This document shows, piece by piece, positions 18,817 through 50,522 of a stretch of 55,041 nt of DNA. The notes below the pieces were generated by a model, which worked only from the letters and a program-made list of their open reading frames with translations, had not been told where the DNA came from and did not search any database. The stretch lies in assembly GCA_964392415.1 (NCBI GenBank), contig CAYMPL010000003.1:1-55041 (forward strand). The letters are read 5' to 3'. Numbering within the stretch: position 1 is the stretch's first letter; every line of letters starts with the position of its first letter. This DNA comes from an uncultured bacterium. Its GTDB lineage: Bacteria > Bdellovibrionota > JACOXK01 > 2-02-FULL-40-11. The translations under genes and the position numbers were made by a program.

Positions 18817-18819
18817 CAA

Positions 18820-23651: not shown

Positions 23652-23672
23652 AATATGAATAAGGAGGAAGCC

Positions 23673-30239: not shown

Positions 30240-30271
30240 CGTCATTCTGAGCGCGTTAGCGCGAAGAATCC
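30240..30271. repeat. REP-like palindrome, opposite orientation
   Basis: CGTCATTCTGAGCGCGTTAGCGCGAAGAATCC. Confidence 0.7.
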
Positions 30272-30444
30272 CATCGAGCTACGGTAAGGCCTCAGAACCT
30301 GTGAAAAAATTGAGAAAGTATAATTCAACCGCTCGAATTTATCGCCACCGATCCCCATTCAATGTGGTCAGGTTCTCGAAACTGCAGTCAGCATCTACTG
30401 ATGCAGGGTTTCTATCTGAACCAATACGCAAGGAGAGAGCTATC

Positions 30445-32445: not shown

Positions 32446-32448
32446 GCA

Positions 32449-33561: not shown

Positions 33562-34055
33562 CCTCCTACGATTTTATTTTCTACGCGTTTTCAGGGGTCA
33601 TTATCGGATCATCTGTTGTTTGCGTCTTTCATCCGAATATTCTTTATGCGGGACTTTCCCTTTTTGGAGCTTTTTTTGGAGTGGCTGGGATTTATTTGCT
33701 TCTGGGAGCCGATTTTTTGGCGGCAACACAGGTTTTGATCTATGTCGGGGGGATTCTCACATTGCTTCTTTTTGCAGTCATGCTTTCTAAAAATATTTAT
33801 GGGGTAAAATTTGAAGAAGAAAAAAAGAGAAAAATCGTCCCCACCCTTTTTTGTCTGATTCTTTTGGGTTTTCTCGTGAAGCTCATATTCTCAGCCCACT
33901 GGAATATCGTCACCCCAACTGATCCGCCAACTGCTACAACCCATCGTCTCGGAACACTCCTCTTAACCGACTATCTTTTGCCATTTGAATTGGCCTCTGT
34001 TCTTCTTTTGGCATCCCTCATAGGGGCGATCGTTTTGGCGAGGAGTAAAAGTTAG
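33558..34055 (+). CDS. nuoJ: Complex I subunit J (set 1)
   Basis: QVLIYVGGILTLLLFAVML, YLLPFELASVLLL; ATGA overlap with nuoH. Confidence 0.92.
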   Translation: MTSYDFIFYAFSGVIIGSSVVCVFHPNILYAGLSLFGAFFGVAGIYLLLGADFLAATQVLIYVGGILTLLLFAVMLSKNIYGVKFEEEKKRKIVPTLFCLILLGFLVKLIFSAHWNIVTPTDPPTATTHRLGTLLLTDYLLPFELASVLLLASLIGAIVLARSKS

Positions 34056-34058
34056 CAG

Positions 34059-34370
34059 ATGTTACACGTTGAATTAAAGCATTACCTCGTTCTCTCATCC
34101 ATTCTTTTTGTGCTTGGAATTCTCTCGATTATTTCAAGAAAAAACTCGATTGGGGTTTTGATGGGGATAGAACTTGTGCTGATCTCCGCAAGTATTAATT
34201 TTGTCGCATTCTCAAAATATATCGCGATGGATCTCTCAGGGCAGGTTTTTGCCCTCTTTCTTTTCATTATTTCGGTTTCAGAAGCGATCGTCGCTCTCGC
34301 CATTGTGCTCCGGATTTATCAAAACAGGGCATCTGTAGATATGGATGATGTCGGAGATCTTAAATGTTAA
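34059..34370 (+). CDS. nuoK: Complex I subunit K (set 1)
   Basis: MGIELVL and VSEAIVALA (both conserved Glu). Confidence 0.93.
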   Translation: MLHVELKHYLVLSSILFVLGILSIISRKNSIGVLMGIELVLISASINFVAFSKYIAMDLSGQVFALFLFIISVSEAIVALAIVLRIYQNRASVDMDDVGDLKC

Positions 34371-36358
34371 CAGCCATGACTGCGATTCTTATTTCACCCC
34401 TGATTTCATTTGCAGTTCAGATTTTCTTCGGAAAACGCCTCCCAAGATCTGGAGATTGGGTTTCGATCTTTGCCATTTTTCTCTCCCTTGTCCTTTCGAT
34501 CCTTCATTTTATGGATGTTTTCAGCGCTTTTGATCCTTCCTTTAAACTGACCTTCTCCTGGCTCTGGCTCGACATTCCCGAATTTAGACTTGAGTTTGGC
34601 TACCACATCGACAACGTCAGTTCGCTGATGCTCGTTGTGGTCACAGGAGTCAGTTTCCTGATTCATCTCTATTCGGTCGGCTATATGCGCGGGGATTCAA
34701 GATACAGCCGCTATTTTGCCTATCTCTCTTTCTTCTCCTTTTCGATGATCGGGCTTGTTCTCGTTGATAATCTGTTTTTTCTCTACATTTTTTGGGAACT
34801 GGTGGGTCTCTCTTCCTACCTTCTCATTGCCTTCTGGTTTGAAAAACCAGAAGCGGCAGCGGCAGGCAAGAAGGCCTTTATTGTGACGCGTATCGGCGAC
34901 GTGGGGATGTTTGTAGGAATTCTTCTCATCTTCTTCCAAACAAACGGTCTTCTCAAATACGACGATGTTTTCGGCGCTGTTTCAAAGGGGCTTTTCAACT
35001 CCGATATATTTGGAATCTCAGTTTTAACGATTGCGGGGGTCTGTCTCTTTTTGGGAGCGGTCGGAAAATCTGCCCAGTTTCCACTCCATATTTGGCTTCC
35101 AGACGCCATGGAGGGCCCGACACCGATTTCAGCGCTGATTCATGCGGCAACAATGGTCGCTGCGGGGGTCTATCTCGTCATACGGATGTTCCCTTTTTTA
35201 TCCGATGACGCGCTGCTCATCATCGCGTATACAGGGGGATTCACCGCTTTTTTCGCCGCAACGATGGCTGTCACACACACTGATATCAAAAAAATTCTCG
35301 CCTATTCAACGATCAGCCAGCTGGGATTTATGATGCTTGGGGTGGGGGTCGGAAATTATACGGGGGGATTTTTTCATCTCGTCACACACGCCGCTTTCAA
35401 AGCTTCGCTCTTTCTCTGCGCGGGGAGTGTGATTCATGCGACACATTCGCAAGACATTCGTGAGATGGGGGGATTACGCCAAAAAATGCCGATCACATTC
35501 TGGGCAAGTCTTATAGCTACGCTTGCTATATCAGGAGTACCTTTTTTCTCAGGATTCGTCAGTAAGGATTTAATTTTGGGAAGCGTCTATTCATTTGCAA
35601 ATGAAAATCCAGTTCATATTCTGCTGCCGATATTTGGTTTTGGTGGCGCGCTGCTTACCGCTTTTTATATGTTCCGCTGGTTGTTCTTGATCTTTTTTGG
35701 CACAGCCAAAAAAAATCAGCTGCATGAATCGACTTGGACAATGACCATACCGTTGATCTGCCTGAGCATCCTCTCCTTCGCTATTATTTTCACAGGTTCC
35801 CCACTCTGTTTGGGTGAACTCAATCTCTTTGGTTCTTCCAGCCAGTGGTTTACACATCTCATTGTTTCTCCAAAAACAACGGAATCCCATGAGAATGCGC
35901 ATCTCATTCCTTTAATCCTCTCCCTTTCCATCGTTACTGCTGGAATTCTTCTTTCGTACCTCACCTATTCCAGAAAGCTTATCGATCCCCAAAAGATCTC
36001 GGACAAATTCAAGGGCATCTATAAGACACTCACAAATCTTTATTGGATCGATGAACTCACCGAATGGCTGATCGTGAACAACCAGATCCGTCTCAATAAT
36101 GTCCTTGCCAACTTTGACAACCGTGTGATTGATGAAACGCTTGTTGATGGCTGGGCGCCCCTTACGGCAAAGACCTCCCTTATTTCAGGTGATTTTGACA
36201 ATCGGGCCATCGATCAGACACTGGTTGATGGAACAGGGAGGATCATTGGTCAGACGGGGACAGAAATCCGAAAAATTCAGACTGGAAAAGTTCAACAATA
36301 TCTTTTATTAGGACTTGGGGCTGCCTGTATAACGCTCTTGATTCTTTTAATGGTTTAA
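34364..36358 (+). CDS. nuoL: Complex I subunit L (set 1), elongated transverse helix
   Basis: FWELVGLSSY, GKSAQFPLHIWLPDAMEGPTP, HLVTHAAFKA, FVSKD, IQTGKVQQY. Confidence 0.95.
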   Translation: MLTAMTAILISPLISFAVQIFFGKRLPRSGDWVSIFAIFLSLVLSILHFMDVFSAFDPSFKLTFSWLWLDIPEFRLEFGYHIDNVSSLMLVVVTGVSFLIHLYSVGYMRGDSRYSRYFAYLSFFSFSMIGLVLVDNLFFLYIFWELVGLSSYLLIAFWFEKPEAAAAGKKAFIVTRIGDVGMFVGILLIFFQTNGLLKYDDVFGAVSKGLFNSDIFGISVLTIAGVCLFLGAVGKSAQFPLHIWLPDAMEGPTPISALIHAATMVAAGVYLVIRMFPFLSDDALLIIAYTGGFTAFFAATMAVTHTDIKKILAYSTISQLGFMMLGVGVGNYTGGFFHLVTHAAFKASLFLCAGSVIHATHSQDIREMGGLRQKMPITFWASLIATLAISGVPFFSGFVSKDLILGSVYSFANENPVHILLPIFGFGGALLTAFYMFRWLFLIFFGTAKKNQLHESTWTMTIPLICLSILSFAIIFTGSPLCLGELNLFGSSSQWFTHLIVSPKTTESHENAHLIPLILSLSIVTAGILLSYLTYSRKLIDPQKISDKFKGIYKTLTNLYWIDELTEWLIVNNQIRLNNVLANFDNRVIDETLVDGWAPLTAKTSLISGDFDNRAIDQTLVDGTGRIIGQTGTEIRKIQTGKVQQYLLLGLGAACITLLILLMV

Positions 36359-36367
36359 GGAGGAAGC

Positions 36368-37918
36368 GTGATTTTACCAGAATTTATTTCAGATCATATT
36401 TTAAGCTGGATGGTCCTTTCACCCCTTATTGGAATAGCGCTGATTCTTCTTATTCCACGGCTCCAGAACAACGCCATTCGCTGGATTTCAGTTTTGACGA
36501 CCGCGATTCCCCTCTTATTGTCGGTTGCCCTTATTTTTCTTTTCGATCGGGATGAGGCCGGGATTCAATTTGTAGAAAGGGCCCCCTGGATTACGAGCTT
36601 TAATATCTATTACTATCTGGGGACCGACGGGCTCTCGGTCACGATGCTTCTTCTGACCGCCCTGCTCTCATTCCTCTGTGTGTTCGCCTCATGGGGGATC
36701 GACAGAGGGGTCAAAGGCTATTTCTCGATGTTTCTTCTTTTGGAAACAGGGATGATGGGGGTCTTTGCCGCCCTCGACTTCTTTCTCTTCTATCTCTTCT
36801 GGGAAGTGATGCTCCTTCCGATGTATTTCTTAATCGGCGTCTGGGGGGGACCCAAAAAAGAGTTCGCCGCGATCAAGTTCTTTCTCTATACCCTCTTTGG
36901 CTCTGTCCTCATGCTCGTTGTTATGCTTGCATTTTATTTTTACAGTGAGCCGCATACTTTCGACCTCGTTGAACTCTCAACCGGGATTCTTCAATTTAAA
37001 AACGTGGAAATTTTTGGAATTTCATTGACGCCGGAAACATTCCGAAGAATCCTCTATATCTTTCTATTCATTGGTTTTGCGATTAAAGTTCCCATCTTCC
37101 CGTTTCATACATGGCTCCCTCTCGCGCACGTCGAAGCTCCCACCCCAATTTCTGTTCTCCTTGCCGGAATACTTTTAAAAATGGGGGCATACGGACTCTT
37201 AAGGATCAGCTTTCCGATTTTACCGGAGGAAACAATTTGGTTTGCTTACCCACTTGCGTTTATGGGACTGATCAATGTGATCTATGGAGCTTTTTGCGCG
37301 ATGGCTCAGATTACGCTCCCCGCCTCCAAAGGGGGAAACGACTGGAAAAAACTGATCGCCTATTCATCGATTAATCACATGGGGTATGTTCTCTTGGGAA
37401 TGTCTGTTTTTACAACGGAGGGGATGAACGGAGCTGTTTTCCAGATGTTTAATCATGGCACAACGACGGCAATGCTCTTTCTTTTGGTCGGTGTTATCTA
37501 CGACCGCGTCCATCACAGAAAGATCGATGGCTTCGGGGGGCTAGGTGCTCAGCTTCCTGTCTACACAGGCGTTGTCGCGTTGGCTTTCTTTGCGTCACTT
37601 GGACTGCCGGGGCTTTCGAGCTTTATCTCTGAAGTGCTTGTATTTTTGGGGGCATTTAAGGTTTACCCGACAATCACTATTCTAGCCACTCTCGGCATTA
37701 TCCTCAATGCGGCCTTTTTCCTCTGGGTATTCCAGAAAATCTTTTTTGGCCCGCTCAATAGCAGCTATAAAGATCTTAAAGATTTAAATTGGCGTGAGAA
37801 GGTCTCGCTGATTCCGCTTTCTATTATTGTGGTTGCGCTTGGGGTCTATCCCATGCCAGTCCTCAACCTCATGAAGGCAAGTCTTGATAAACTGATTCTT
37901 TTAATTCAGGCCACTTAA
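36368..37918 (+). CDS. nuoM: Complex I subunit M (set 1)
   Basis: FWEVMLLPMY, AIKVPIFPFHTWLP.AHVEAP, LLKMGAYG, FISEVL. Confidence 0.95.
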   Translation: MILPEFISDHILSWMVLSPLIGIALILLIPRLQNNAIRWISVLTTAIPLLLSVALIFLFDRDEAGIQFVERAPWITSFNIYYYLGTDGLSVTMLLLTALLSFLCVFASWGIDRGVKGYFSMFLLLETGMMGVFAALDFFLFYLFWEVMLLPMYFLIGVWGGPKKEFAAIKFFLYTLFGSVLMLVVMLAFYFYSEPHTFDLVELSTGILQFKNVEIFGISLTPETFRRILYIFLFIGFAIKVPIFPFHTWLPLAHVEAPTPISVLLAGILLKMGAYGLLRISFPILPEETIWFAYPLAFMGLINVIYGAFCAMAQITLPASKGGNDWKKLIAYSSINHMGYVLLGMSVFTTEGMNGAVFQMFNHGTTTAMLFLLVGVIYDRVHHRKIDGFGGLGAQLPVYTGVVALAFFASLGLPGLSSFISEVLVFLGAFKVYPTITILATLGIILNAAFFLWVFQKIFFGPLNSSYKDLKDLNWREKVSLIPLSIIVVALGVYPMPVLNLMKASLDKLILLIQAT

Positions 37919-37925
37919 GGAAAAC

Positions 37926-39398
37926 ATGGAAAATCTTTCTACAGCTCTTCTTCTTTATTCGCCCGAAATGATCATCGCCATCACACTCTGTTTCGCGCTC
38001 ATTATCCAGATGATTTCAAAGAATAAGACGCTGACTTTTCTAACCGTCCTTTCGGGACTTCTTGTTTCAGCTTATGCCAGCCTTCGGCTGAGCGAAGTTG
38101 AGCCGCAAACCTATTTTTCAAATCTTCTCAGTCACGATCCCTTTTCTCTCTTTTTTAGAGCCTTCTTTATATTAGCGACTTTTTTCACTTTTCTTTTCAG
38201 CTTCACATCTCATGAGATCTCGGAAGACCGCCATTCTGAATTTTATTTGATGATACTTTCTGTTCTCATCGGAATGACAACGCTCGTTTCTTCCATAAAT
38301 ATCCTCTCGCTCTATCTTTCATTGGAACTGGTGAGTATTGTCTCTTATGCTCTTGCCGGTTTTAGAAAGGAGCATCCCGCTTCAAACGAAGCGGCCATTA
38401 AATATCTCCTTTACGGGGCCATGGCATCGGGAACGATGCTTTGGGGGCTATCGCTTCTCTATGGACTGACAGGAACACTCAATCTCTATCTTCTTAAAGC
38501 AGCCCTTTCTTCTTCCTATATTGATCCCCTCTCACTCCACGCTATTTTCATCATGCTCCTTTTTGGATTTGGATTTAAGATGGCATTTGTTCCATTTCAT
38601 ATGTGGGCGCCGGATGTCTACCACGGAGCTCCCACCCCGACTGCCGCTTTTTTTACGGTTGCCCCAAAAGCCGCAGGGTTTGCGATCTTTATTCGCTTTT
38701 TCTACACCGTTTTTGCAAATCCGGTCGGTAATGGAACTGAATGGGTCTGGTACGCAAATCTTAACTGGCCGCTTTTTATTGCGATTCTTTCAGCCCTAAC
38801 GATGACCGTTGGAAATTTATCCGCGCTTTTTCAAAAGAATGCCAAACGGATGCTCGCTTATTCAAGCATTGCCCACGCTGGATATATGATGCTGGGACTC
38901 GTCGCCCTGACACAATCGGGAATTTCTGCGGTTCTCTTTTATATCGTTGTTTACTTTTTTATGAATTTTGGGGCCTTCTTTATTGTGGGGCTCGTGGGAA
39001 ATATCTTTAAAAATGAAGAAATCTCAAATTTTAAGGGACTGGGATGGAAATCGCCGCTGGTTGGAATTTCTATGGCGATCTTCCTTTTATCTCTCACAGG
39101 ACTCCCCCCTCTCGGCGGTTTTATCGGAAAGGTTTATCTTTTTTTAGCGCTCGTTCAGAAAGAGATCTACTGGCTGCTGATTGTGGCAATTATCAATACC
39201 GTTATTTCACTTTATTACTACGCATATATCATCCGTGAAATGTTTCTTGAAAAACCGGAAAATGAAACCCGGATTGTTCTTTCCCCGCTCCATGCAGTCA
39301 CACTCCTTCTTCTTGTCGTTCCAACCGTTGTTCTTGGCATCTATTGGGAACCGTTAATGACCTACGTTTCAAAATCGCTGCAATTTGTACAACCTTAA
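37926..39398 (+). CDS. nuoN: Complex I subunit N (set 1)
   Basis: LELVSIVSY, GFKMAFVPFHMWAPDVY, PKAAG, KRMLAYSSIAH, FIGK. Confidence 0.95.
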   Translation: MENLSTALLLYSPEMIIAITLCFALIIQMISKNKTLTFLTVLSGLLVSAYASLRLSEVEPQTYFSNLLSHDPFSLFFRAFFILATFFTFLFSFTSHEISEDRHSEFYLMILSVLIGMTTLVSSINILSLYLSLELVSIVSYALAGFRKEHPASNEAAIKYLLYGAMASGTMLWGLSLLYGLTGTLNLYLLKAALSSSYIDPLSLHAIFIMLLFGFGFKMAFVPFHMWAPDVYHGAPTPTAAFFTVAPKAAGFAIFIRFFYTVFANPVGNGTEWVWYANLNWPLFIAILSALTMTVGNLSALFQKNAKRMLAYSSIAHAGYMMLGLVALTQSGISAVLFYIVVYFFMNFGAFFIVGLVGNIFKNEEISNFKGLGWKSPLVGISMAIFLLSLTGLPPLGGFIGKVYLFLALVQKEIYWLLIVAIINTVISLYYYAYIIREMFLEKPENETRIVLSPLHAVTLLLLVVPTVVLGIYWEPLMTYVSKSLQFVQP

Positions 39399-39444: not shown

Positions 39445-41067
39445 ATGAATTGGGCCATGAACTGGAATCGAAGAAATTTTTTAAAATTCATGGGAAGAAG
39501 TTCTGTAGCTCTTTGGACGCTCTCTTCTCTAAACTCACTGGCTTCATGCGCATCCATCCCTCCTCAAAAAAAGAAACTGCTCCCTTTCGAACCGATTCCA
39601 CCTTCCTCAGAAGATCAACTGATTTTGGCAGATGGGTTTCAACATAAAATTGTCCTTTCGTGGGGTGAAGTGATCAATCGACAGGGGGAGCGATTCGGAT
39701 TTAACAATGACTTTACAGCCTTTTTTCCATTCGACCCCTTTAAACCGGATGACGGCCTCTTTTGGGTTAACCACGAATACCCGCATCCTATTTTCATCAA
39801 CGGCTATATTTCGGGAGAAGTCCGGACAAAATCGCAAATTGAGGCGGAACAGGCATCTCTGGGGGGGACGATTATACGGATTCGCCAAAATATGGGAGGC
39901 GGGTGGGAGCCGGTTTTTGACGACTTTCGCAATCGAAGAATTTCTGCCATCACGCCGATCCCCATCGTATCGACGCGGCCGATAGCCGGAAAAAAAGTTG
40001 CCATGGGAACACTCGCAAATTGCGCGGGGGGAGTCACCCCCTGGCGAACGGTTCTCTCCTGTGAAGAAACGTATGAAGACTTTTATGGTGAAAGGGATTT
40101 TTTGAATAAAAGAGACCGGATCGTCCCTGAGTCTGCCTACGGCTGGCATCGTTTTTTCTTTTATCCCCCTGAACATTACGGCTGGGTGGTGGAAGTTGAT
40201 CCCTTTACGGCAAAATCAAAAAAACTGACTGCCCTGGGACGGTTTGGTCATGAGGGGGCGAATATCGCGTTGACGAGTGATGGACGCCCGGTCGTTTACA
40301 TGGGGGATGATGGAATCGATCGCTGTCTCTATAAGTTTGTCGGGAAGTATACGGGAACGCTCGAGACTGGAACGCTCTATGTTGCCAATATCGAAAAGGG
40401 GATATGGATCCCGCTCGATATTAAAAAAACAGCCTCTCTTCAAAAATATTTTAAAGATCAGACAGAAGTCCTGACGTATGCGCGCGAGGCGTCAAAAATT
40501 GTCGGCGGAACCCCGCTGGCACGTCCTGAAGATGTCGAATATGATCCCGTCTCCAAAGAAATTTTTGTGGCTCTCACAAAAGACAAAAACAAAGGAAATT
40601 ATTTTGGTTCTCTTTTGAGGCTTATTGAAAAAGACCATGATCCGGGAGCTATCGAATTCGAGGCCGCAGTCTTTTTGACAGGGGGGGAAGAGAGCGGTTT
40701 TGCATGCCCCGATAATATGGTCTTTGATCGGAAGGGGAATCTCTGGCTTACCGGCGATATGTCAGAGAAAGATATGGGAAACGCCCCTTATCAAAAATTC
40801 AAAAACAACGGCCTCTTTTTTATTCCAATGAACGGGCCCCATGCGGGGAGTGTTTTCCAGGTCGCCTCCGCCCCCGTTGATGCCGAGTTCACCGGCACTT
40901 CATTTTCACCCGATGGTAAAACCCTTTTTATTTCGGTTCAACATCCAGGTGAACGAACGCAAAGTCTCGATCAACTCACCAGCCATTGGCCTGATGGCGG
41001 AAATGCCATTCCACGCCCGAGCGTTGTTGCGATTTCAGGCCCGGCGCTGGAAAAAATTGTGTCATAA
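39445..41067 (+). CDS. phoX: PhoX-family alkaline phosphatase, Tat-exported
   Basis: NRRNFLK twin-Arg; VNHE, NCAGGVTPWRTVLSCEE, GRFGHE, RPED, PDN, AEFTG, VQHPGE. Confidence 0.88.
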   Translation: MNWAMNWNRRNFLKFMGRSSVALWTLSSLNSLASCASIPPQKKKLLPFEPIPPSSEDQLILADGFQHKIVLSWGEVINRQGERFGFNNDFTAFFPFDPFKPDDGLFWVNHEYPHPIFINGYISGEVRTKSQIEAEQASLGGTIIRIRQNMGGGWEPVFDDFRNRRISAITPIPIVSTRPIAGKKVAMGTLANCAGGVTPWRTVLSCEETYEDFYGERDFLNKRDRIVPESAYGWHRFFFYPPEHYGWVVEVDPFTAKSKKLTALGRFGHEGANIALTSDGRPVVYMGDDGIDRCLYKFVGKYTGTLETGTLYVANIEKGIWIPLDIKKTASLQKYFKDQTEVLTYAREASKIVGGTPLARPEDVEYDPVSKEIFVALTKDKNKGNYFGSLLRLIEKDHDPGAIEFEAAVFLTGGEESGFACPDNMVFDRKGNLWLTGDMSEKDMGNAPYQKFKNNGLFFIPMNGPHAGSVFQVASAPVDAEFTGTSFSPDGKTLFISVQHPGERTQSLDQLTSHWPDGGNAIPRPSVVAISGPALEKIVS

Positions 41068-41074
41068 GGATTTC

Positions 41075-41971
41075 ATGAAAAAAGAATCTTTGGCTCAGGG
41101 GGCGATGATTGTCATATCCGCCGTTTGGGGTTCAACTTTTATTATGGTGAAAGAAGCCTTGAACGGCGTGCATCCTTTGACGCTCACCAGTTTTCGTTTT
41201 TTGATCGCCTCTTTTCTTTTGCTTCCGTGGGTTTTTAAGAAAAGAAGCTCTTTTAGAAACGCCCTTTCAGCGGGCTGTTATTTGGGAATTTTTCTTTGGA
41301 TTCTTTATCTCACTCAGACATGCGGGCTTTATTTTACTTCGGCCGCAAATTCCGGTTTTCTCACCGGGCTCTTTATTGTATTTATCCCGATATTTCTCTT
41401 TTTTGTTTCCGGAGTACGCATCGGGAAATTTCAAATTTTCACCATTGGTTTGGCCACCTTCGGCGTGTGGCTCTTAACAGGCGGGGTGGAGAAGTTCAAT
41501 ATCGGCGACGGACTCACCATTATCTGCGCATCTGCTTACGCGGCGCACGTTCTTCTGATCGACCGATATGCCAAGAGTTCCCTGGAACCTGTGCATTTGG
41601 CCTTCATTCAGTTTTTTCTGGTAGGTTTCTTAAGTCTTCTTGCCTCCCTCCCTATCGGAGAAAGAGCGTTCCTCATCGATCCCTCCGTTTGGGACAGCAT
41701 CATTTTTCTCACCCTTTTTCCAACGCTTCTTGCATTTTTTATCCAGCTTTGGGCTCAAAAATTTGTGTCCCCCGTTAAAGCCGGGCTCATCTATACTCTT
41801 GAACCCGCCTTTGCGGCGCTCTTTGCCTGGACTGTAGGAGGAGAAGAGATCACCTGGAGAGGGGTTTTGGGAGGAGGGCTTGCTTTCCTGGCAATTTTTC
41901 TTTCTGAATTTTATCATCAGCGTCATTCCGAGGCCGCAGGCCGAGGAATCTCGTCGGAAGCCTCTTGGTGA
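41075..41971 (+). CDS. EamA/DMT family transporter
   Basis: WGSTF, SAANSGFLTGL, EPAFAALFAW; about 10 TM segments. Confidence 0.88.
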   Translation: MKKESLAQGAMIVISAVWGSTFIMVKEALNGVHPLTLTSFRFLIASFLLLPWVFKKRSSFRNALSAGCYLGIFLWILYLTQTCGLYFTSAANSGFLTGLFIVFIPIFLFFVSGVRIGKFQIFTIGLATFGVWLLTGGVEKFNIGDGLTIICASAYAAHVLLIDRYAKSSLEPVHLAFIQFFLVGFLSLLASLPIGERAFLIDPSVWDSIIFLTLFPTLLAFFIQLWAQKFVSPVKAGLIYTLEPAFAALFAWTVGGEEITWRGVLGGGLAFLAIFLSEFYHQRHSEAAGRGISSEASW

Positions 41972-41981
41972 AAGCGGCTGA

Positions 41982-42030
41982 TTTTTTTACCTTGAGTAAT
42001 CCCATACAATTACATATAAAAAAAACGATG
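41982..42030 (+). promoter_or_regulatory. Promoter/operator block, copy 1 (before nuoA set 2)
   Basis: TTGAGT-N17-TATAAA-N7-ATG with GTAAT-N8-ATTAC; near-identical to 43735-43783. Confidence 0.7.
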
Positions 42031-42396
42031 CTTGTGGAGAATCACATTGCCGTCATGCTCATGTTTCTTTTTGCTGTTCTTTTGGGGGCGGCAATGATCG
42101 GGCTTTCGGCGGTGGTGGGGCGTGTCAAACGCGACCCCGAAAAGCTCTCTGTTTACGAGTGCGGCGCCCCCCCTTCAGGAACCTCAAGAGAGCGATTTTC
42201 GGTCAAATTTTATCTGGTGGCTATCTTCTTTCTCATCTTTGATATTGAAATCGTTTTTCTTTATCCCTGGGCGCTGATTTTTAAACGCCAGCTTTCACAG
42301 GGCCCTTTGATTTTGGTTGAAATGCTGATTTTTCTTGCCCTTCTCATCGTCGGTTATCTTTATATATGGAAAAAACGGGGGCTTGAATGGGATTAG
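42028..42396 (+). CDS. nuoA: Complex I subunit A (set 2)
   Basis: VYECG, RFSVKFYLVAIFFLIFDIE, RGLEWD. Confidence 0.95.
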   Translation: MLVENHIAVMLMFLFAVLLGAAMIGLSAVVGRVKRDPEKLSVYECGAPPSGTSRERFSVKFYLVAIFFLIFDIEIVFLYPWALIFKRQLSQGPLILVEMLIFLALLIVGYLYIWKKRGLEWD

Positions 42397-43556
42397 GTAA
42401 TTAATCCAAGTTCTTTTAAGCCTTCCCGCCAAGGAATAGCGAGAATATTCCCAATCTTTTTTTTATGTGGATCCCTTGAAAAAATGAAGGCTTCGGCGTT
42501 TTTGAAATCTTTTAAAAATCTTTCCAGGGTTCGACTATCTCGTTCATCAATATGATCATTCGATTTAATTTCAATCAGCGCAGTCGGTTCTCCAGGTCTC
42601 TCAATAATTAAATTGATTTCTGCATTGTCTTTTGTTCTAAGATAGGAAAGGCGGTAATCTTTTTTAAAATATTGATTTAAACGATCTATTTCTATAATCA
42701 AAAAATGTTCAAATGCCTTACCAAATGCATAAGTATTTGGAAGCAATTTTACCGGAAGCTGCCGTGCCAGAGCTCTTTGAATGCCTGTATCAAAGAAATA
42801 AAATTTCGGATTCGTTCGCTGCTGTTTTCGAATCGATCGATGATGCGGTTCAAGCATAAAACCGATCAATGTATCTTCCAGAATCTGAAAATAAGATTGA
42901 ACCGTTTTTGTGTCACTGCCAACATCCCTTGCTATATTTGTAAAATTAATAATCTCACCATTGGCTTGTGCGGCAATTTCAAGAAACCGTCTAAACGGAT
43001 CCAATTTTCGGATGATGTGCTCAGCCCAGATCTCCTCCTTCAAATAGGTCTGCGCGTAGGATGTCAAATAGTCATGTTTTTCTTCTTCTGTTTTCAAGTG
43101 AAAGATTTTCGGGAGCGTCCCCCAGTGTAGTGTTTCTCCAAGATCGAACGAATCGCCGAGTTCGACGTGGGTCAGTGAAAAGAGATGATTGACAAATGCT
43201 CGGCCCGCCAGAAGATTTGCCCCTCCCTTTTTCAATTTTCGCGCGCTTGATCCGGTCATTGAAAATTTAATTGGCGTTGATTCAATGAGCGAATGGACAA
43301 CATCGAGCAGCTTGGGCTGTTTCTGAATTTCATCGATAATAATCCAGTCGATCGAACCGATCTGAGCTTTTGCCTGTTCTGCTAAGACAGCAGGATTTCT
43401 TAAAAAAAGGTCTTCTGTTTTGGGATCAAGGAGGTCGAACCAGAGGATGCGTCCATCTTTAAAAAACATCTGTAAAAACGTAGACTTACCTGTTCCACGC
43501 GCTCCAAATATAAAAAAACTATTTGATTTCAGAGGCTTAATAATCCTATGGAACAT
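42393..43556 (-). CDS. AAA_14 ATPase with DUF4143-type C-terminal domain
   Basis: GARGTGKST, IIIDEIQK, TGSSA, PKFYFFDTG, IEIKS. Confidence 0.85.
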   Translation of the reverse strand: MFHRIIKPLKSNSFFIFGARGTGKSTFLQMFFKDGRILWFDLLDPKTEDLFLRNPAVLAEQAKAQIGSIDWIIIDEIQKQPKLLDVVHSLIESTPIKFSMTGSSARKLKKGGANLLAGRAFVNHLFSLTHVELGDSFDLGETLHWGTLPKIFHLKTEEEKHDYLTSYAQTYLKEEIWAEHIIRKLDPFRRFLEIAAQANGEIINFTNIARDVGSDTKTVQSYFQILEDTLIGFMLEPHHRSIRKQQRTNPKFYFFDTGIQRALARQLPVKLLPNTYAFGKAFEHFLIIEIDRLNQYFKKDYRLSYLRTKDNAEINLIIERPGEPTALIEIKSNDHIDERDSRTLERFLKDFKNAEAFIFSRDPHKKKIGNILAIPWREGLKELGLIT

Positions 43557-43634
43557 ATTCCATATTTATACGATAATTATGGAGTTTTGTCCACAATTAG
43601 TTTATGTCGGCAATAAGTCGTTCGTCAAAAAAAT

Positions 43635-43723
43635 GAGATCCTTCGCCCTTCGGGGAGAGGCATGACACACAGGGATCCTTCGCTGCGCTCAGGATGACAG
43701 AGGGCTTCGGGCTCAGGATGACA
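43635..43723. repeat. Cluster of three REP-like units
   Basis: GAGATCCTTCG..., GGATCCTTCGCTGCGCTCAGGATGACA, CTTCGGGCTCAGGATGACA. Confidence 0.75.
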
Positions 43724-43734
43724 GATATTGAAAG

Positions 43735-43783
43735 TTTTTTGCCTTGAGTAATCTCCTATAATTACATATAAAAAAGGGCGATG
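43735..43783 (+). promoter_or_regulatory. Promoter/operator block, copy 2 (before nuoH set 2)
   Basis: TTGAGT-N17-TATAAA-N8-ATG with GTAAT-N8-ATTAC. Confidence 0.7.
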
Positions 43784-44833
43784 TCACCTCTGGATTTTAC
43801 GATCCTTTTCATAAAGATTGTTGTTGTCCTTGGGGTTTTGCTCAATATGGTCCCCCTTCTGGTCTGGGTTGAAAGGCGGGGAGCGGCATTCATTCAGGAT
43901 CGCCCCGGCCCTAATCGGGTTGGCCCTTTGGGGCTTTTTCAGCCGCTTGCAGATGCGCTGAAGTTTATTTTTAAAGAAGATCCGATCCCCTTTCATGTCG
44001 ATCCCGTCCTTTTTATCCTTGCCCCGCTGTTTGCGCTGATCCCGGCTGTTGTCACATTTGCCGCCATCCCTTTTGGGGATACGATTGAACTTTTTGGAAG
44101 AACCATCACGCTTCAGGTCGCCGATATGAATATCGGCATTCTCTATATTCTTGCGTTCGGTTCCCTCGGTGTTTATGGAATTCTTATCGCCGGATGGGCA
44201 TCAAACAACAAATACTCAACCCTCGGCGCGCTCCGTTCATCGGCTCAAATGATCAGTTACGAAATCGCGATGGGGGCCGCGCTCGTCGGCCCTCTGATGA
44301 TCTATGAAACATTCTCTTTGAAAGAAATGGTCTTTCGACAAGAAGCAATCTGGGGGATTTTTCTTCAACCCCTCGCCTTTGTCATTGTTTTGATAGCCGC
44401 TTTTGCTGAATGCAATCGATTGCCGTTCGACCTTCCGGAAGGGGAGGCGGAAATTGTTGCTGGTTATCACACGGAATACGGAAGCATGAAATTTGCGATC
44501 TTTTTTATGGCTGAATATCTGCATGTCGTTACGATTTGTTCGTTAATCGCAACCCTCTTTCTTGGCGGGTGGCATTTGATTCCTGGGATGGTGACCGTTG
44601 CGGAATGGGTTGGGATTCCGACATTTCCAACTTCGGTTGGGCTCTCGCTTCTTCAGGTTGCTTCCTTCTGCATTAAAACAGCTTTTATGATCTGGATTTT
44701 TATCTGGGTCCGATGGACATTTCCAAGATTTCGTTATGACCAGCTCATGTCCTTTGGATGGAAAATCATGGTCCCGCTGGGACTCGTCAATATTCTTTTA
44801 ACAACAGTTGCGCTCTATTTTAAATGGATTTAA
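43781..44833 (+). CDS. nuoH: Complex I subunit H (set 2)
   Basis: ERRGAAFIQDRPGPNRVG, ADALK, RLPFDLPEGEAEIVAGYHTEY, RFRYDQLM. Confidence 0.95.
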   Translation: MSPLDFTILFIKIVVVLGVLLNMVPLLVWVERRGAAFIQDRPGPNRVGPLGLFQPLADALKFIFKEDPIPFHVDPVLFILAPLFALIPAVVTFAAIPFGDTIELFGRTITLQVADMNIGILYILAFGSLGVYGILIAGWASNNKYSTLGALRSSAQMISYEIAMGAALVGPLMIYETFSLKEMVFRQEAIWGIFLQPLAFVIVLIAAFAECNRLPFDLPEGEAEIVAGYHTEYGSMKFAIFFMAEYLHVVTICSLIATLFLGGWHLIPGMVTVAEWVGIPTFPTSVGLSLLQVASFCIKTAFMIWIFIWVRWTFPRFRYDQLMSFGWKIMVPLGLVNILLTTVALYFKWI

Positions 44834-44837
44834 GTTC

Positions 44838-45347
44838 ATGGCAATGCTCTATCAGATAACCATTTGGCTGCTCTCGGCAATCTGCATTGTTTGCGCCCTC
44901 TCCGTGATTCTCCAGAAAAATCCTGTGGTCAGCGCGATTCATCTCATCGGCTGCTTTTTTGCGCTCGCCGGGCTTTTTTTGATGCTTCAGGCGCCGTTTC
45001 TTGCGGCAGCTCAAATCATTGTCTATGCTGGCGCCATTATGGTTCTTTTTATTTTTGTCATTATGCTTCTTAATCTCAAAAAAGATCCGGAGCGTTTTTC
45101 GAGAGCAAGACTCTTTAGACTCCCCAGGATCGTCCTCCTTCTCCTTTTGCTTTTTTCATTTTTAACTTCCATTTTTGCAACGGCGTTCCCTTTTGTGTCG
45201 CATAGGGGGGCTAATATAGGAAGGTCTGTGGGCGATGTGGCAACGCTTCTTTTTACCAAATATCTTTTCCCTTTTGAACTTGCATCTCTGCTTCTTCTCA
45301 TCGCCATGATCGGGGGGATCGTGATGGCAAAAAAAAGGGCGCCATGA
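44838..45347 (+). CDS. nuoJ: Complex I subunit J (set 2)
   Basis: [32 protein letters not shown]. Confidence 0.93.
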
Positions 45348-45643
45348 GCTATTCGTACTATTTAATTTTAAGCTCCATTTTATTTACGATCGGCGTCTCC
45401 GGTGTTTTGCTGAGACGCAATCTCATTGTGGTTTTTATGTCTATTGAACTGATGCTAAACAGCGTCAATCTTCAACTCGCCGCCATTTCCAAATATCTTC
45501 ACTTTCTGGACGGACAAATTTTTGTCTTTTTCATTATTACGGTTGCCGCGGCGGAAGCAGCCGTGGGGCTTGCGATTGTCATTGCTTTGTACCGCCATAA
45601 AGAAACAACCAACATTGACGAGATCAATCTTTTAAAAGGGTAA
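45344..45643 (+). CDS. nuoK: Complex I subunit K (set 2)
   Basis: [18 protein letters not shown]. Confidence 0.95.
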
Positions 45644-45645
45644 CC

Positions 45646-47547
45646 ATGATTACACTGATCCTTCTCTCTCCATTACTCGGTTTTTTAATCAATGGCCTGA
45701 TCGGAAAAAAACTCCCCAAAGCGATGGTGGGGGGAATTGCCTGTTTTACCGTATTTATCTCTTTTGTCTTTTCATTCTATTCTTTCATTCAGTTCCTCGA
45801 CAGCCCTGAGGTGTGGCGAAATCTCTCCACCACGCTTTTTTCATGGATTCCTCTTTTGGGGGTTGATGTCGCATTAAAACTCGATCCGTTATCACAGCTG
45901 ATGGTTCTTGTGGTCACGGGCGTCGGTTTTTTTATTCATCTCTATTCAGTCCATTACATGGATCATGACTCGGGATTTGCCCGATATTTTTCGTATCTCA
46001 ATCTCTTTATCTTTTCGATGCTGCTTCTGGTCCTCGCAAATAATCTTTTGCTTCTTTTTATTGGATGGGAAGGGGTGGGTCTCTGCTCGTATCTTTTGAT
46101 CGGCTTTTGGTTTGAAGACGAAGAAAAAGCGATGGCGGGGAAAAAGGCTTTTATCGTCAACCGGATCGGAGATCTTGCGTTTCTCATCGCTCTTTTTCTG
46201 GTGTTTGCCACCTTCGGAACCCTAAACATCGACAGTCTTAAATTTGCCGAAGTCTCTCCGGAACAGAGAGCAACGATCGGTCTTATCACCCTCCTTCTCT
46301 TCATCGGAGCCTGCGGCAAATCCGCGCAAATCCCCCTCTACGTTTGGCTCCCGGACGCAATGGCAGGCCCCACACCGGTTTCCGCGCTGATTCATGCCGC
46401 AACGATGGTAACGGCGGGGGTCTATATGGTCGCGCGTCTCCATTTTTGGTATGTTCTTGCCCCCGCTACGATGACCGTTGTGGCTGTGACTGGCCTTGTG
46501 ACTGCTCTCTTTTCAGCGGCAATAGCCTTCTTTCAAAACGACATCAAAAAAATTCTTGCCTACTCAACCATCAGCCAGCTTGGATATATGTTCCTTGCGG
46601 TTGGAATTGGAGCCTTTTCCAGCGGCATTTTTCACCTCATCACGCACGCATTTTTCAAGGCGCTCCTCTTTTTGGGGGCAGGGAGTGTGATTCACGCCCT
46701 TTCCAATGAACAAGATATTCAGAAAATGGGGAATCTCCGGTCAAAACTCCCACTGACACATCTGACTTTTCTTTTTGGAACACTCGCGATTATCGGCATT
46801 CCCCCTTTCTCGGGATTCTTCAGTAAAGATGAAATTCTTTGGATGGCATTTAATCGTCATCCGCTTTTTTGGGTTTTGGGCCTGATCGGGGCATGGATGA
46901 CAACTTTCTATATGGTCAGGCTTTTTACTCTCGTCTTCTATGGCTCCTCACAGCCAGAAAAAAAACAAGAACGCTTGCATCAGCCGCATGAGGCCCCGCC
47001 ACTGATGGCGCTGGCATTAATTGTGCTTTCTATCTTTACGCTGCTCGGCGGCCTCATCGGTGTCCCCTCTATTCTTTATAAGATTTTAAAGATTGATCAC
47101 TTTCTCGACGTCTTCCTAAAACCGACATTCCCCGTTCACCTTGCGACAGATGCGGGTCATCATCTTGAATATCTTTTGATGGGTCTGACCATCTCGGGAA
47201 CAGCGCTCATTGCCGTTTTGACCTTTCTTCTTTATCACCGATACCGGGAAACTGCCCTTCATTGGAAACTTAAATTCAGAGCTCTTCATAAGATCGTCGC
47301 AGATAAATTTTATGTGGATGAATTGTATGATCTCCTCCTGGTTCGTCCTCTCAACCGAGGCGCGGACTTTCTCCTGCGCACGTTTGACTTGAAAATCATC
47401 GATGGTTTTGTCAATGGTCTGGCAAAAATGAATCTTTATGGAGGTAACCGCTATTCCGTGATCCAAAATGGAAATCTTCAGACATACGCTTTCATCTTTG
47501 TGCTGGGGGCATTTTTGGTCATGCTCTATTATTTACGGGGATTTTGA
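45646..47547 (+). CDS. nuoL: Complex I subunit L (set 2), normal-length helix
   Basis: GWEGVGLCSY, GKSAQIPLYVWLPDAMAGPTP, HAFFKA, FFSKD, IQNGNLQTY. Confidence 0.95.
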   Translation: MITLILLSPLLGFLINGLIGKKLPKAMVGGIACFTVFISFVFSFYSFIQFLDSPEVWRNLSTTLFSWIPLLGVDVALKLDPLSQLMVLVVTGVGFFIHLYSVHYMDHDSGFARYFSYLNLFIFSMLLLVLANNLLLLFIGWEGVGLCSYLLIGFWFEDEEKAMAGKKAFIVNRIGDLAFLIALFLVFATFGTLNIDSLKFAEVSPEQRATIGLITLLLFIGACGKSAQIPLYVWLPDAMAGPTPVSALIHAATMVTAGVYMVARLHFWYVLAPATMTVVAVTGLVTALFSAAIAFFQNDIKKILAYSTISQLGYMFLAVGIGAFSSGIFHLITHAFFKALLFLGAGSVIHALSNEQDIQKMGNLRSKLPLTHLTFLFGTLAIIGIPPFSGFFSKDEILWMAFNRHPLFWVLGLIGAWMTTFYMVRLFTLVFYGSSQPEKKQERLHQPHEAPPLMALALIVLSIFTLLGGLIGVPSILYKILKIDHFLDVFLKPTFPVHLATDAGHHLEYLLMGLTISGTALIAVLTFLLYHRYRETALHWKLKFRALHKIVADKFYVDELYDLLLVRPLNRGADFLLRTFDLKIIDGFVNGLAKMNLYGGNRYSVIQNGNLQTYAFIFVLGAFLVMLYYLRGF

Positions 47548-49067
47548 TGTTTTTGGAAAACACTCTTTTAACGATCGTGATTTTTCTTCCGCTCATGGGG
47601 GCGCTCCTGCTCTTTTTGCTGCCGGGGATTGTCCGACATCACGCGCAGTGGATCGCGCTCGGAATCGCCGCATTTGAATTTGGTCTTTCTATCTTAATTT
47701 TCGATTTTTTTGATCCCTCCACCCATCTTCTTCAACTGGTTCAAAAAACCCCCTGGATTCCTTCCCTTGGAGTTTCCTATTTTATTGGCATTGATGGCAT
47801 CAGTCTCTGGCTTGTCTGTCTTACCACTTTTTTAACCCCTGTTGTTATTCTCGCCTCAGAGATCAAAGACCGGGGGTATCTCGCTTCTTTTTTAATTTTG
47901 GAAACGGCAATGGTCGGCACCTTCCTAGCGCTCGATCTTCTCCTCTTCTACCTTTTCTGGGAGATGATGCTCATTCCAATGTATTTCATTATTGGCATGT
48001 GGGGGGGGGCAAGACGAATTTACGCAACGCTCAAATTTTTTATTTACACATTGGCAGGGGGTGTTTTTATGCTCCTTGGCATTATCTTTTTAATTTATCT
48101 CCATCACGAACAGTTCGGATTTTTCTCGGCAAGCCTTCTCGATATTTACGCGGTTCAAATCCCTTTTGACTATTCGCATTTTCTAAACCCCCAGAATCTT
48201 CTTTTTCTCGCGTTTGCTGTTGCCTTCCTGATCAAAGTCCCGATGTTCCCATTTCATACCTGGCTCCCCGATGCCCATGTGGAAGCGCCGACAGGGGGGA
48301 GTGTCATTCTGGCAGGGGTCCTTTTGAAAATGGGGGCCTATGGTTTCTTAAGATTTGCAATCCCTCTTTTCCCGGAGGCGACAACATTTTTTACCCCGGC
48401 TCTGATTGCGCTTTCGCTCATCGGCGTAATTTACGGCGCTTTCCTCGCCCTCGCTCAAAACGATTTAAAAAAACTGGTTGCCTATTCATCGATCAGCCAC
48501 ATGGGGCTTGTCATGCTTGGGATCTTTGTTTCAAATGGCTTTGGATTGAGCGGCGGTGTTTTTCAGATGCTCTCTCACGGCGTCTCAACAGGGGCGCTCT
48601 TTCTTTTGGTCGGCATCCTCTATGAGAGACGTCATACACGCGAGATCTCCCATTTTGGCGGACTGACCAAAGTCATGCCGATGTATGCTGTTTTTTTCAT
48701 GATTATCACGCTCTCATCGCTCGCACTGCCAACGACCAATGGCTTCATTGGAGAATTTCTGGTTCTTCTCGGCGCCTTTTATGAGCAGCCGCTGTATGCC
48801 GTACTGGGAGGAACCACAGCCATTTTTAGCGCCACCTATCTTTTGAGAATGTATCAAAAGGTGATGTTTGGCCCACTGAAATATGAAGAGAATAAAGGAT
48901 TGAGAGATTTATCCCCCAAAGAAATTGCCTCTCTCATTCCGATTATGATCATGATTTTCTGGATGGGATTATACCCAAAAACATTTTTAAGTAAGATGGA
49001 GAAATCGATCGATCATCTGGTTTCACAGAGACATTCGTATCAGTTGGAGATTTATGAGAAAAAGTAG
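47547..49067 (+). CDS. nuoM: Complex I subunit M (set 2)
   Basis: FWEMMLIPMY, IKVPMFPFHTWLPDAHVEAP, LLKMGAYG, FIGEFL. Confidence 0.95.
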   Translation: MFLENTLLTIVIFLPLMGALLLFLLPGIVRHHAQWIALGIAAFEFGLSILIFDFFDPSTHLLQLVQKTPWIPSLGVSYFIGIDGISLWLVCLTTFLTPVVILASEIKDRGYLASFLILETAMVGTFLALDLLLFYLFWEMMLIPMYFIIGMWGGARRIYATLKFFIYTLAGGVFMLLGIIFLIYLHHEQFGFFSASLLDIYAVQIPFDYSHFLNPQNLLFLAFAVAFLIKVPMFPFHTWLPDAHVEAPTGGSVILAGVLLKMGAYGFLRFAIPLFPEATTFFTPALIALSLIGVIYGAFLALAQNDLKKLVAYSSISHMGLVMLGIFVSNGFGLSGGVFQMLSHGVSTGALFLLVGILYERRHTREISHFGGLTKVMPMYAVFFMIITLSSLALPTTNGFIGEFLVLLGAFYEQPLYAVLGGTTAIFSATYLLRMYQKVMFGPLKYEENKGLRDLSPKEIASLIPIMIMIFWMGLYPKTFLSKMEKSIDHLVSQRHSYQLEIYEKK

Positions 49068-49073
49068 CAGTTT

Positions 49074-50522
49074 ATGACAGAACAGCTTTTTTACTTTTCA
49101 CCTCTTCTTATTCTTACCATAACCGCGCTCTTTGTCCTTCTCATTGACGCCTTTCTTAAAAACGGAGCGCCAAAATTGGCATTTCTTCTTTCCCTCATTG
49201 GCATCTCCGCCGCCTCTTTCGCCTGCATTGAGCTTTGGAAAGAGCCTACCCTCTCTCTCTTTTATGAAGCGATCCGGCTCGACCGGTTTTCACTCTTTTT
49301 TACGTTACTTTCTCTCTTTTTAATCCTTTTGACTCTTTTAAATACCTATCGTCCCCTCATGGAAAAGAGACTGCCAGCAGGGGAATTTTTATTCTTTCTG
49401 CTCTGCTCCGGCATCGGGATGTCACTCATGGCATGGGCGACCGATTTAATCACGCTTTTTATGAGTTTAGAAATCATGAGCCTCTCGGTCTACATCTTGA
49501 CAGGAATTGAAAAGGAGAGAATCACCGCCACGGAAGGGGCGTTTAAATATTTTCTGCTCGGTGCTTTCTCAACTGGTTTTTTGCTCTATGGAATTGCCCT
49601 GATCTATTCAATCACAGGCTCCGTTCTCTTCTCTGATATCTCAAATTTTCTTGTGGTCTCAAAACAGACGCTCCCAACCGTTTTTTACATCGGAGCGGCG
49701 CTCCTCATGGTAGGCTTCGGATTTAAAATCGCCGCCGTCCCCTTTCATATGTGGGTCCCCGATGTTTATGAAGGGGCGGGAACGGCTGTAACAGCACTCA
49801 TGGCGACCGGGGTTAAGGCCGCAGGCTTTGCCGCATTGGTTCGTTTTTTTATTGTGTCTCTTCTGTCCCTCAAAACAGAGTGGAATTTTGTCTTATTTTG
49901 GCTCGCTGTATTAACGATGACGGTCGGAAATCTTGCGGCATTGGTTCAGACGAACCTCAAACGGATGCTTGCCTATTCGAGTATTGCGCACGCCGGATAT
50001 CTTCTTGTGGCTGTCTCGGCAACGCAGGCGCAAAACTTCGATCTTGGAACAAGCGCGATTCTCTTTTATCTGATCGCCTACGGACTGATGACGATTGGCG
50101 CATTTTCTGTCATGATTTTTGCAAGCCATCACAAAGAAAGAAACTTCCTTGATGACTATGCGGGATTCGGGCTTCAGCATCCGTATCTCGGTCTTGCAAT
50201 GGTTCTTTTTATGCTCTCGCTGACCGGCATCCCTCTCACGGCAGGATTTATCGGAAAGTTTTATATTTTTAGCGCCGCCCTTAAATCAAAAGACTTTATT
50301 CTCGCCGTCATTGCAATAATGAACAGCATCATCGCGGCCTACTATTACCTTCGCGTCATTGTTGTGTTTTATATGAAGCCGCAGACTTCGCCGATTGCGA
50401 TTCAATCATCTTTTGCGCTTAATTTGTCCCTGCTTCTTACTTCCATCGGAACCCTTGGACTCGGCCTCTTTCCTTCTCAGATTCTTAAAATTATCAAAGA
50501 TTCCGTAACCGCGCTTTTGTAA
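49074..50522 (+). CDS. nuoN: Complex I subunit N (set 2)
   Basis: LEIMSLSVY, GFKIAAVPFHMWVPDVYEGA, VKAAG, FIGKFY. Confidence 0.95.
   Translation: MTEQLFYFSPLLILTITALFVLLIDAFLKNGAPKLAFLLSLIGISAASFACIELWKEPTLSLFYEAIRLDRFSLFFTLLSLFLILLTLLNTYRPLMEKRLPAGEFLFFLLCSGIGMSLMAWATDLITLFMSLEIMSLSVYILTGIEKERITATEGAFKYFLLGAFSTGFLLYGIALIYSITGSVLFSDISNFLVVSKQTLPTVFYIGAALLMVGFGFKIAAVPFHMWVPDVYEGAGTAVTALMATGVKAAGFAALVRFFIVSLLSLKTEWNFVLFWLAVLTMTVGNLAALVQTNLKRMLAYSSIAHAGYLLVAVSATQAQNFDLGTSAILFYLIAYGLMTIGAFSVMIFASHHKERNFLDDYAGFGLQHPYLGLAMVLFMLSLTGIPLTAGFIGKFYIFSAALKSKDFILAVIAIMNSIIAAYYYLRVIVVFYMKPQTSPIAIQSSFALNLSLLLTSIGTLGLGLFPSQILKIIKDSVTALL

Follow-up and report, generated by a model that had tools for sequence, protein, structure and literature searches.

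Operons can 'die' by insertion, and energy-production operons survive best, with 31 genes in surviving and 0 in dead operons (Price, Arkin and Alm, 2006; PMC1480536); a split nuo operon is therefore unusual. Here, we describe such an operon in a 55,041-nucleotide (nt) stretch of DNA from an uncultured bacterium (contig CAYMPL010000003.1), referred to throughout as the window. The window carries two sets of nuo genes for complex I, and in set 2 (nuoA2-H2-J2-K2-L2-M2-N2) two blocks of about 45 nt (41983-42027 and 43735-43780) end at the ATG start codons of nuoA2 and nuoH2, which lie apart. The likeness to operon death by insertion is that a conserved nuoA-nuoH pair has been parted by horizontally mobile genes and that the downstream part needs a promoter. 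There are two distinguishable differences. The first is that the downstream part appears to have received a copy of the operon's own promoter at its start codon instead of an unrelated promoter. The second is that the split form is stable across several strains while the cargo changes.

Three further systems are close to this locus. Leaderless mRNA promoters are common in Actinobacteria, Deinococcus and archaea, and the blocks resemble them in having a -10 hexamer 6-8 nt upstream of the ATG, no Shine-Dalgarno (SD) sequence and a spacing that is kept across orthologs; they differ in the 7-8 nt linker of this clade, which would allow a leader of 1-2 nt, and in that SD sequences are used at other genes. 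Spacer dyad operators, whether repressor-occluded or MerR-type, likewise have an inverted repeat with conserved arms and a free centre between the -35 and -10 hexamers. However, MerR-type promoters have a spacer of 19-20 nt, whereas here the spacer has the optimal 17 nt and the arms are 5-6 bp, with no linked regulator and no other regulon member found. Finally, the inserted gene matches the models of PDC-S01, a group of COG1373 AAA_14-DUF4143 ATPases in PADLOC, but the ATPase is here cargo only, and the block exists in relatives without it. A phrase search of the literature for promoters duplicated in the wake of an operon split gave no relevant result. What is unusual at this locus thus has three parts: the operon's own putative promoter was duplicated and fused at a start codon, the split is kept across strains and the gap exchanges its cargo.

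We put a probability of about 0.65 on the reading that the block is the native promoter of nuoA2-H2-J2-K2-L2-M2-N2, which has been copied to nuoH2 in the split operon, and that the cargo slot in between has since turned over. The original prediction had reported near-identical blocks before nuoA2 and nuoH2, and the strings that it quoted were recovered in both places. A repeat search of the window gave a 41-nt direct repeat (41983-42023 and 43735-43775), 90% identical, with its copies 1752 nt apart, and a degenerate pattern of the shared bases had exactly two matches in the 55-kb window against 0.00 expected (100 shuffles). Block 1 consists of TTGAGT (41992-41997), a 17-nt spacer, TATAAA (42015-42020) and 7 nt before the ATG at 42028; block 2 consists of TTGAGT (43744-43749), a 17-nt spacer, TATAAA (43767-43772) and 8 nt before the ATG at 43781. 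No block precedes set 1 (nuoA1 at 32053 to nuoN1 at 39398), as the original prediction had also noted: nuoA1 starts 11 nt past the stop of a DsbA-like gene and nuoH1 adjoins nuoA1 directly. Two other identities for the block were tried and rejected. The reading frame of block 1 is open and was called as a protein in another metagenome-assembled genome (MAG; P0363), but an N-terminal coding extension of nuoA2 does not fit, because the copies differ by indels and block 2 has an in-frame TAA; the block is non-coding. Nor is it a dispersed repeat of the repetitive extragenic palindromic (REP) or miniature inverted-repeat transposable element (MITE) kind, with two copies in the window, one in the genome of a close relative and a contig depth of single-copy DNA. 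Only one true extra locus with the block came from the metagenomes, and only two contexts were seen in the eight runs with contigs on it.

The ancestral state can be read from unsplit relatives. The closest database genome, L001 (GCA_964371555.1; NuoH2 93% identical), has the same synteny as the window, namely set 1, PhoX, EamA and set 2, with nuoA2 and nuoH2 only 1 nt apart and a single block, before nuoA2. The window's nuoA2 is 94% identical to L001 9583-9998 at the DNA level, and over nuoH2-N2 the window is 90% identical to L001 and 93% to L023, a second split locus. An alignment of L001 with the window by blastn breaks at 42395 and 43780, and the window is longer by 1384 bases, placed precisely between the stop of nuoA2 and the ATG of nuoH2. 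One block before nuoA2, with nuoH2 directly behind, was also found in L016 (NuoA2 98% identical), in L017/L018 (88%) and in L014, from a Joint Genome Institute (JGI) metagenome; adjacency of nuoA2 and nuoH2 extends to L008 and to the more distant L002-L004 and L009-L013. The genes are therefore adjacent and co-oriented in relatives, 1384 nt apart in the window and separated by at least two genes in L023/X10, which defines an operon split. The ancestral arrangement is adjacent nuoA2-nuoH2 with one block.

Duplication of the block is confined to strains in which nuoA2 and nuoH2 lie apart, namely the window, L023 (run X10) and those of runs X11 and X13. An insertion accompanies the block at nuoH2 in every case, and strains with the unsplit operon all have a single block. 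The original prediction had called for a comparison with relatives lacking the ATPase: in L001, L016, L017 and L014 the genes are adjacent and the block is single, and two blocks without an insertion were never encountered in a relative. The idea of a duplicated promoter has thus held up, through the promoter architecture and its conservation, the single copy where the genes are adjacent, the double copy only where they are split and its absence before set 1.

The prediction that the ATPase gene caused the split is not supported as stated, since L023 has the same two boundaries around entirely different cargo. This 11.8-kb sequence contains a 246-amino-acid (aa) open reading frame (ORF) and a DUF4423 gene, both on the minus strand, then a 172-nt spacer, the block and nuoH2-N2; its homology with the window starts at 43738, 6 nt before the -35 hexamer of block 2. 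Contigs of other groundwater runs (X10, X11 and X13) have the block fused to nuoH2 with unrelated DNA upstream, and in these runs AATTTTTTGTTGATAATAG... follows the nuoA2 stop (after 42395), which is neither nuoH2 nor the ATPase of the window; contigs with the nuoA2-type and nuoH2-type blocks are equal in depth there. Both split haplotypes therefore have the same boundaries (the nuoA2 stop and 6 nt upstream of the block-2 -35 hexamer) with entirely different cargo. The nuoH2-type blocks of the window and L023 also share a derived 8-nt linker, AAAGGGCG, whereas all nuoA2-type blocks have 7 nt, and over nuoH2-L2 these two are more alike (93.0%) than either is to L001 (90.7% and 91.8%). Because boundaries and linker are shared and the cargo is different, the duplication probably predates at least one present cargo; most simply, the block was duplicated once in a common ancestor and the cargo turned over afterwards.

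Seven copies of the block from six strains, five before nuoA2 and two before nuoH2, were aligned. They have an invariant core, CCTTGAGTAATC-N6-RATTACATATAAAAA, of 26 columns, whereas variation is seen in 15 of the 18 columns that make up the 6-nt centre, the 5' flank and the final 3 nt ahead of the ATG (Fisher p = 3.5e-9). Among the four-fold sites of nuoA2, just 12 of 48 (25%) are invariant in the five nuoA2-bearing taxa, with pairwise four-fold divergence of up to 0.5-0.6. Since so few four-fold sites are invariant, 26 neutral positions would not have stayed so and the core is under selection; with 75% of the four-fold sites varying, its 14 positions outside the hexamers are far too conserved for an unconstrained promoter spacer. 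The -35 hexamer TTGAGT, a 4/6 match to TTGACA, is invariant in the seven copies, and TTGnnn is kept in the orthologs L002, L009, L012 and L013, as is the 17-nt spacer found in all seven. Three of these orthologs (L002, L009 and L013; 71-75% NuoH identity) read TTGnnn-17-TATAAR-6-ATG with unrelated spacer sequences, while L012 retains CTTGAG..AATTAC-TATAAC. The distance from the -10 hexamer to the ATG is 6 nt in those three, 7 nt in the five nuoA2-type blocks and 8 nt in the two nuoH2-type blocks. No SD sequence precedes nuoA2 (ataaaaaaaacgATG) or nuoH2 (aaaaaagggcgATG), both of which start with ATG; SD-like GGAG/AGGA is present at phoX, nuoM1 and nuoN1. These features fit a sigma-70-like promoter that would give a leaderless or nearly leaderless mRNA, with a predicted start at or beside the A of the ATG because the -10 hexamer lies 7-8 nt off and there is no SD sequence. 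An alternative -10 hexamer (TAYRAT) in the loop and arm was rejected, being good in copies W1, W2, L023 and L001, lost in L016, L017 and L014 and without a -35 partner; an RNA or DNA hairpin was rejected as well, with a fold energy of -1.7 kcal/mol and a different fold in L014.

Table 1. Features around the split between nuoA2 and nuoH2 (window coordinates)
Feature	Position	Strand	Remarks
REP-like hairpin GTCATTCCGAG...GAGGAATC	41922..41950	+	between EamA gene and block 1; contig depth rises
Block 1, putative nuoA2 promoter	41983..42027	+	T-tract, -35, 17-nt spacer with dyad, -10, 7 nt, ATG
nuoA2, 122 aa	42028..42396	+	Pfam Oxidored_q4, E 2.7e-35
AAA_14 + DUF4143 ATPase, 387 aa	42393..43556	-	Pfam; convergent to nuoA2
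Strain-specific cargo	42397..43737		absent in unsplit relatives; other genes instead in L023, X10, X11, X13
ATPase promoter-like region	43557..43593	-	TGGACA 43593-43588, 17 nt, TATAAA 43570-43565, 8 nt, ATG 43556
18-mer AGTCGTTCGTCAAAAAAA	43616..43633	+	also 60 nt upstream of nuoA2 block in L001
Two tandem REP-like elements GTCATCCTGAG...GAAGGATCC	43654..43722	-	just upstream of block 2
Block 2, putative promoter copy fused to nuoH2	43735..43780	+	same fusion in L023, X11, X13
nuoH2-J2-K2-L2-M2-N2	43781..50522	+	Pfam NADHdh, Oxidored_q3, Oxidored_q2, three Proton_antipo_M

The following course of events would account for this arrangement. In one sub-lineage (the window, L023/X10, X11 and X13), nuoA2 and nuoH2 would have become separated, and a promoter copy, originally with some upstream spacer, would have been fused to nuoH2 right at the ATG of this gene. 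Microhomology was probably used for the join, since (C)GATG is common to the promoter/nuoA2 and nuoA2/nuoH2 junctions: the two junctions read ...GGCGATGCT and ...ACCGATGTC in L016, with (C)GATG, and ...GGGGATGCT and ...TAAGATGTC in L001, with GATG. A join of this kind would put the nuoH2 ATG in the place of the nuoA2 ATG relative to the -10 hexamer, as a leaderless start demands, and the repeat would for this reason end at the ATG. The copy would give nuoH2-N2 both transcription and SD-independent translation initiation, replacing the lost co-transcription and translational coupling with nuoA2, and the two halves would stay under one control sequence. From the nuoA2 stop to block 2, the DNA would since have acted as a slot with changing cargo (the ATPase in one case, DUF4423 and an ORF in another). 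AATC and ATTACA, the outer spacer parts that make up GTAAT-N8-ATTAC around the drifting central 6 nt, match the hexamers in conservation and might in addition bind a dimeric repressor or activator at the spacer.

How the downstream genes of split operons regain expression is rarely visible. Here, intermediate states are kept in co-occurring groundwater strains, as an unsplit form with one promoter and two split haplotypes with a promoter copy, so that the locus may stand as a concrete case from nature in which a duplicated promoter brought regulatory rescue. It also suggests that leaderless starts make rescue easy, because a 43-nt cassette would supply both transcription and translation initiation, and that a new gap can become a turnover site for defence-type cargo. 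The bipartite conservation would let arms, centre and hexamers be altered separately, toward a regulator that tells set 2 from set 1.

Several observations count against this reading. The -10 hexamer TATAAA matches TATAAT at five of six positions, with A at position 6 (A, G or C in distant orthologs), where T is usually critical, and the sigma-70 consensus scan did not call the site, an omission that follows from that A. The linker is 7-8 nt and not the canonical 6, so that the 5' end could lie 1-2 nt before the AUG. The locus was found in none of the RNA runs searched, and the start site and the promoter activity are predicted from sequence. Transcription may not need block 2, because read-through from block 1 into the antisense ATPase gene and on to nuoH2 is possible: the TAG stop of nuoA2 (42394-42396) overlaps the ATPase stop by 2 nt, which leaves no room for a terminator between the two genes. 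No cargo-free split intermediate was seen that would put the events in order. As for the dyad, its arms are just 5 bp in six of the seven copies and their invariance means that there is no compensatory change; it occurs nowhere else in the window, which is what the search for the bare 10-nt dyad covered, and searches of the L001 genome, the JGI metagenomes and runs X1-X3 and X9-X13 gave no third context for the block, run X4 having no contig on it.

The dyad is where the best-surviving alternative bears. GTAAT-N8-ATTAC occurs in the window only at 41996-42013 and 43748-43765, against 0.02 expected. The prediction that its arms are unchanged while the loop differs now extends to seven copies: in GTAAT(C)-N6/8-(G)ATTAC the arm columns are invariant and five of the six centre columns vary, and in L001 the arms reach 6 bp (GTAATC-N6-GATTAC). 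A protein site centred in the spacer is plausible, as the original prediction had proposed with its operator for a respiratory regulator, and the operator reading is roughly a one-in-three proposition. To our knowledge, none of the consensus sites of Rex, Fnr/Crp, ArcA, the Fur family, LexA, TyrR, sigma-32, sigma-54 or extracytoplasmic function (ECF) sigma factors fits the block; no linked regulator gene was seen at the locus. A function tied to the ATPase was rejected, because four ATPase-free lineages carry the block. The alternative is a promoter only, with no regulator, in which AATC and ATTACA would be contacts or shape requirements of the cell's own RNA polymerase and sigma factor (an extended -35, an extended -10 or spacer geometry); we regard this as possible, if rather doubtful, and take the same view of its corollary that the apparent dyad is a coincidence. 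A 5-bp inverted repeat between two conserved segments is by itself weakly improbable, with an estimated chance of about 0.05-0.1 between a conserved 12-mer and 14-mer, and the 5-bp arms agree with such a coincidence, as do the lack of another dyad in the window, of another block in the whole relative genome or the metagenomes and of the dyad in the more distant orthologous promoters. Nevertheless, the spacer of a sigma-70 promoter is normally free in sequence, and it is free in L002, L009 and L013, yet 14 non-hexamer positions are invariant here; moreover, the conserved and variable parts are symmetric about the spacer centre and the L001 arms extend to 6 bp.

Another explanation makes block 2 a neutral relic, with nuoH2-N2 expressed by read-through from block 1 or from a cargo promoter and translated by internal initiation helped by an A-rich tract. 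The overlapping stop codons of nuoA2 and the convergent ATPase, with no terminator between them, would allow it. We nonetheless consider it unlikely, since block 2 of the window and its counterpart in L023 agree at all 26 core positions, where the flanking coding DNA is 7% different and the upstream DNA is unrelated, and the loop differs between these blocks at two of six positions. X11 and X13 also keep the block at nuoH2, and read-through would have to cross at least 1.4 kb of antisense gene and, in L023, two antisense genes.

Less probable again is that the block marks a cargo slot as such, with defence and toxin-antitoxin genes inserted repeatedly, and always divergently, at its 5' edge. 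If true, duplication of the block inside the operon would have made a second slot, and the dyad would serve a DNA-binding or recombination protein, instead of or besides a respiratory regulator. Its close neighbour, marginally the poorer of the two, takes the block to be a recombination or insertion hot spot resembling an attachment (att) site, with the second copy as a product of integration chemistry. The DNA upstream of both block types is indeed volatile, up to a sharp boundary that lies 6-10 nt short of the -35 hexamer: block 1 is preceded by HepT/MNT in L001, by about 794 nt in X11, by 66 nt in L016 and by nuoN1 in L017, and block 2 by the ATPase in the window and by DUF4423 in L023. All three identified cargo sets are on the minus strand, and the block has a dyad of 5-6 bp with a centre of 6-8 nt. 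However, no recombinase or transposase domain was found in or next to any cargo (the ATPase; HepT/MNT; DUF4423 and its ORF), and what lies between the two copies is nuoA2 together with the cargo, not just the cargo. The copies differ in their central region, whereas for site-specific recombination the cores must be identical. A sharp boundary is also expected from purifying selection on a promoter, and the ATPase homologs are found at unrelated sites that lack the block.

Repeats can mislead assemblers, but an assembly or chimera artefact has already been refuted and is given practically no weight, because independent Logan contigs from four runs in two groundwater studies cross both junctions with 0-1 mismatch (41923-42644 and 42085-42692 over nuoA2/ATPase; 42811-44046 and 43547-44042 over ATPase/block 2/nuoH2), the longest exact run common to both blocks is just 16 nt and a 2984-nt NCBI contig from another MAG has the same arrangement of block 1, nuoA2 and ATPase.

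The ATPase matches the PADLOC PDC-S01 defence candidate with an E-value of 7.7e-58, and DUF4143 has been classed in the PD-(D/E)XK nuclease superfamily (PMC3424549). Beyond its own 90%-identity cluster, no homolog exceeds 74% identity, and the nearest ones are scattered over phyla in unrelated loci; a donor arrangement with the ATPase directly upstream of a nuoA2 block was looked for and not seen among the three closest homologs (P0121, P0122 and P0123), which are in unrelated contexts. The upstream region of the ATPase gene is homologous to that of P0121 in L019, which reads TTGACA-17-TATAAA-8-ATG. In L019 (1-1300), P0121 (74% identical) comes directly after what by eye appears to be the 3' end of ssrA (transfer-messenger RNA, tmRNA; GGGTTCGATTCCCACCGCCTCCA), beside smpB; ssrA is a classic site of island integration. 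Toxin-antitoxin pairs were also seen near set 2, HepT/MNT just upstream of the nuoA2 block in L001 (8696-9509) and PIN/MazE just downstream of nuoN2 in L023 (8450-9021). In the dominant X11 strain, about 794 nt extra lie between the EamA gene and block 1 (41918 to 41980), a third variant of the slot before the nuoA2 block.

Between the ATPase gene and block 2 lies an 18-mer, AGTCGTTCGTCAAAAAAA, with one exact match in the window and one in L007, a locus with the contig region found in L001. Runs X1 and X2 also have it as a single copy; a repeat was therefore rejected and the match is one of true locus homology. Because this sequence upstream of block 2 corresponds to the upstream region in L001, either more than the 41-nt block was copied or a related strain supplied the fragment, and either block may be the original. 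Its minus strand is a T-tract plus TTGACG, where a promoter scan gave TTGACG-18-TAAACT. The neighbouring REP-like elements belong to a family, GTCATYCYGAG...GAAGRATCC, that is found in intergenic spacers, at 30241-30285 (+), 41922-41966 (+), 43654-43722 (-, two copies) and 21810-21854 (-). Depth at those before block 2 was 65-95x (X1, X3 and X4) and 33x (X2) against 4-8x in the flanks, and reached up to 859x; this jump from about 5-8x to 65-860x shows that the family is very abundant in the community.

Both nuo sets (32053-39398 and 42028-50522) consist of membrane-arm genes only, in the order A-H-J-K-L-M-N, and nuoI was not found between H and J in either. The genes nuoB/C/D/E/F/G were not found among the ORFs scanned against Pfam (15087-20782, 21981-25818 and 26690-50522). 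In L017 (1148-3028), 45 nt separate the set-1 nuoN from nuoA2 and the block fills the whole spacer, so that the two sets are directly tandem without PhoX-EamA between them. At 376 aa, the EamA ORF as listed (40841-41971) shares 227 nt with the end of phoX; the ortholog in L001 is shorter (287 aa), and the real start codon probably lies further downstream. The 3' end of the ORF departs from L001 at 41919, with the onset of the REP-like element. The last codons of nuoA2, TTGAATGGGATTA (42383-42395), are 92% complementary over 13 nt to the block-1 part TAATCCCATACAA (41997-42009), which is probably chance, with a weaker match in L001. Elsewhere in the window (16130-17193), a Fic/DOC-domain protein comes after a small HTH_3 (XRE-type) protein and overlaps it, a pair of toxin-antitoxin-like appearance.

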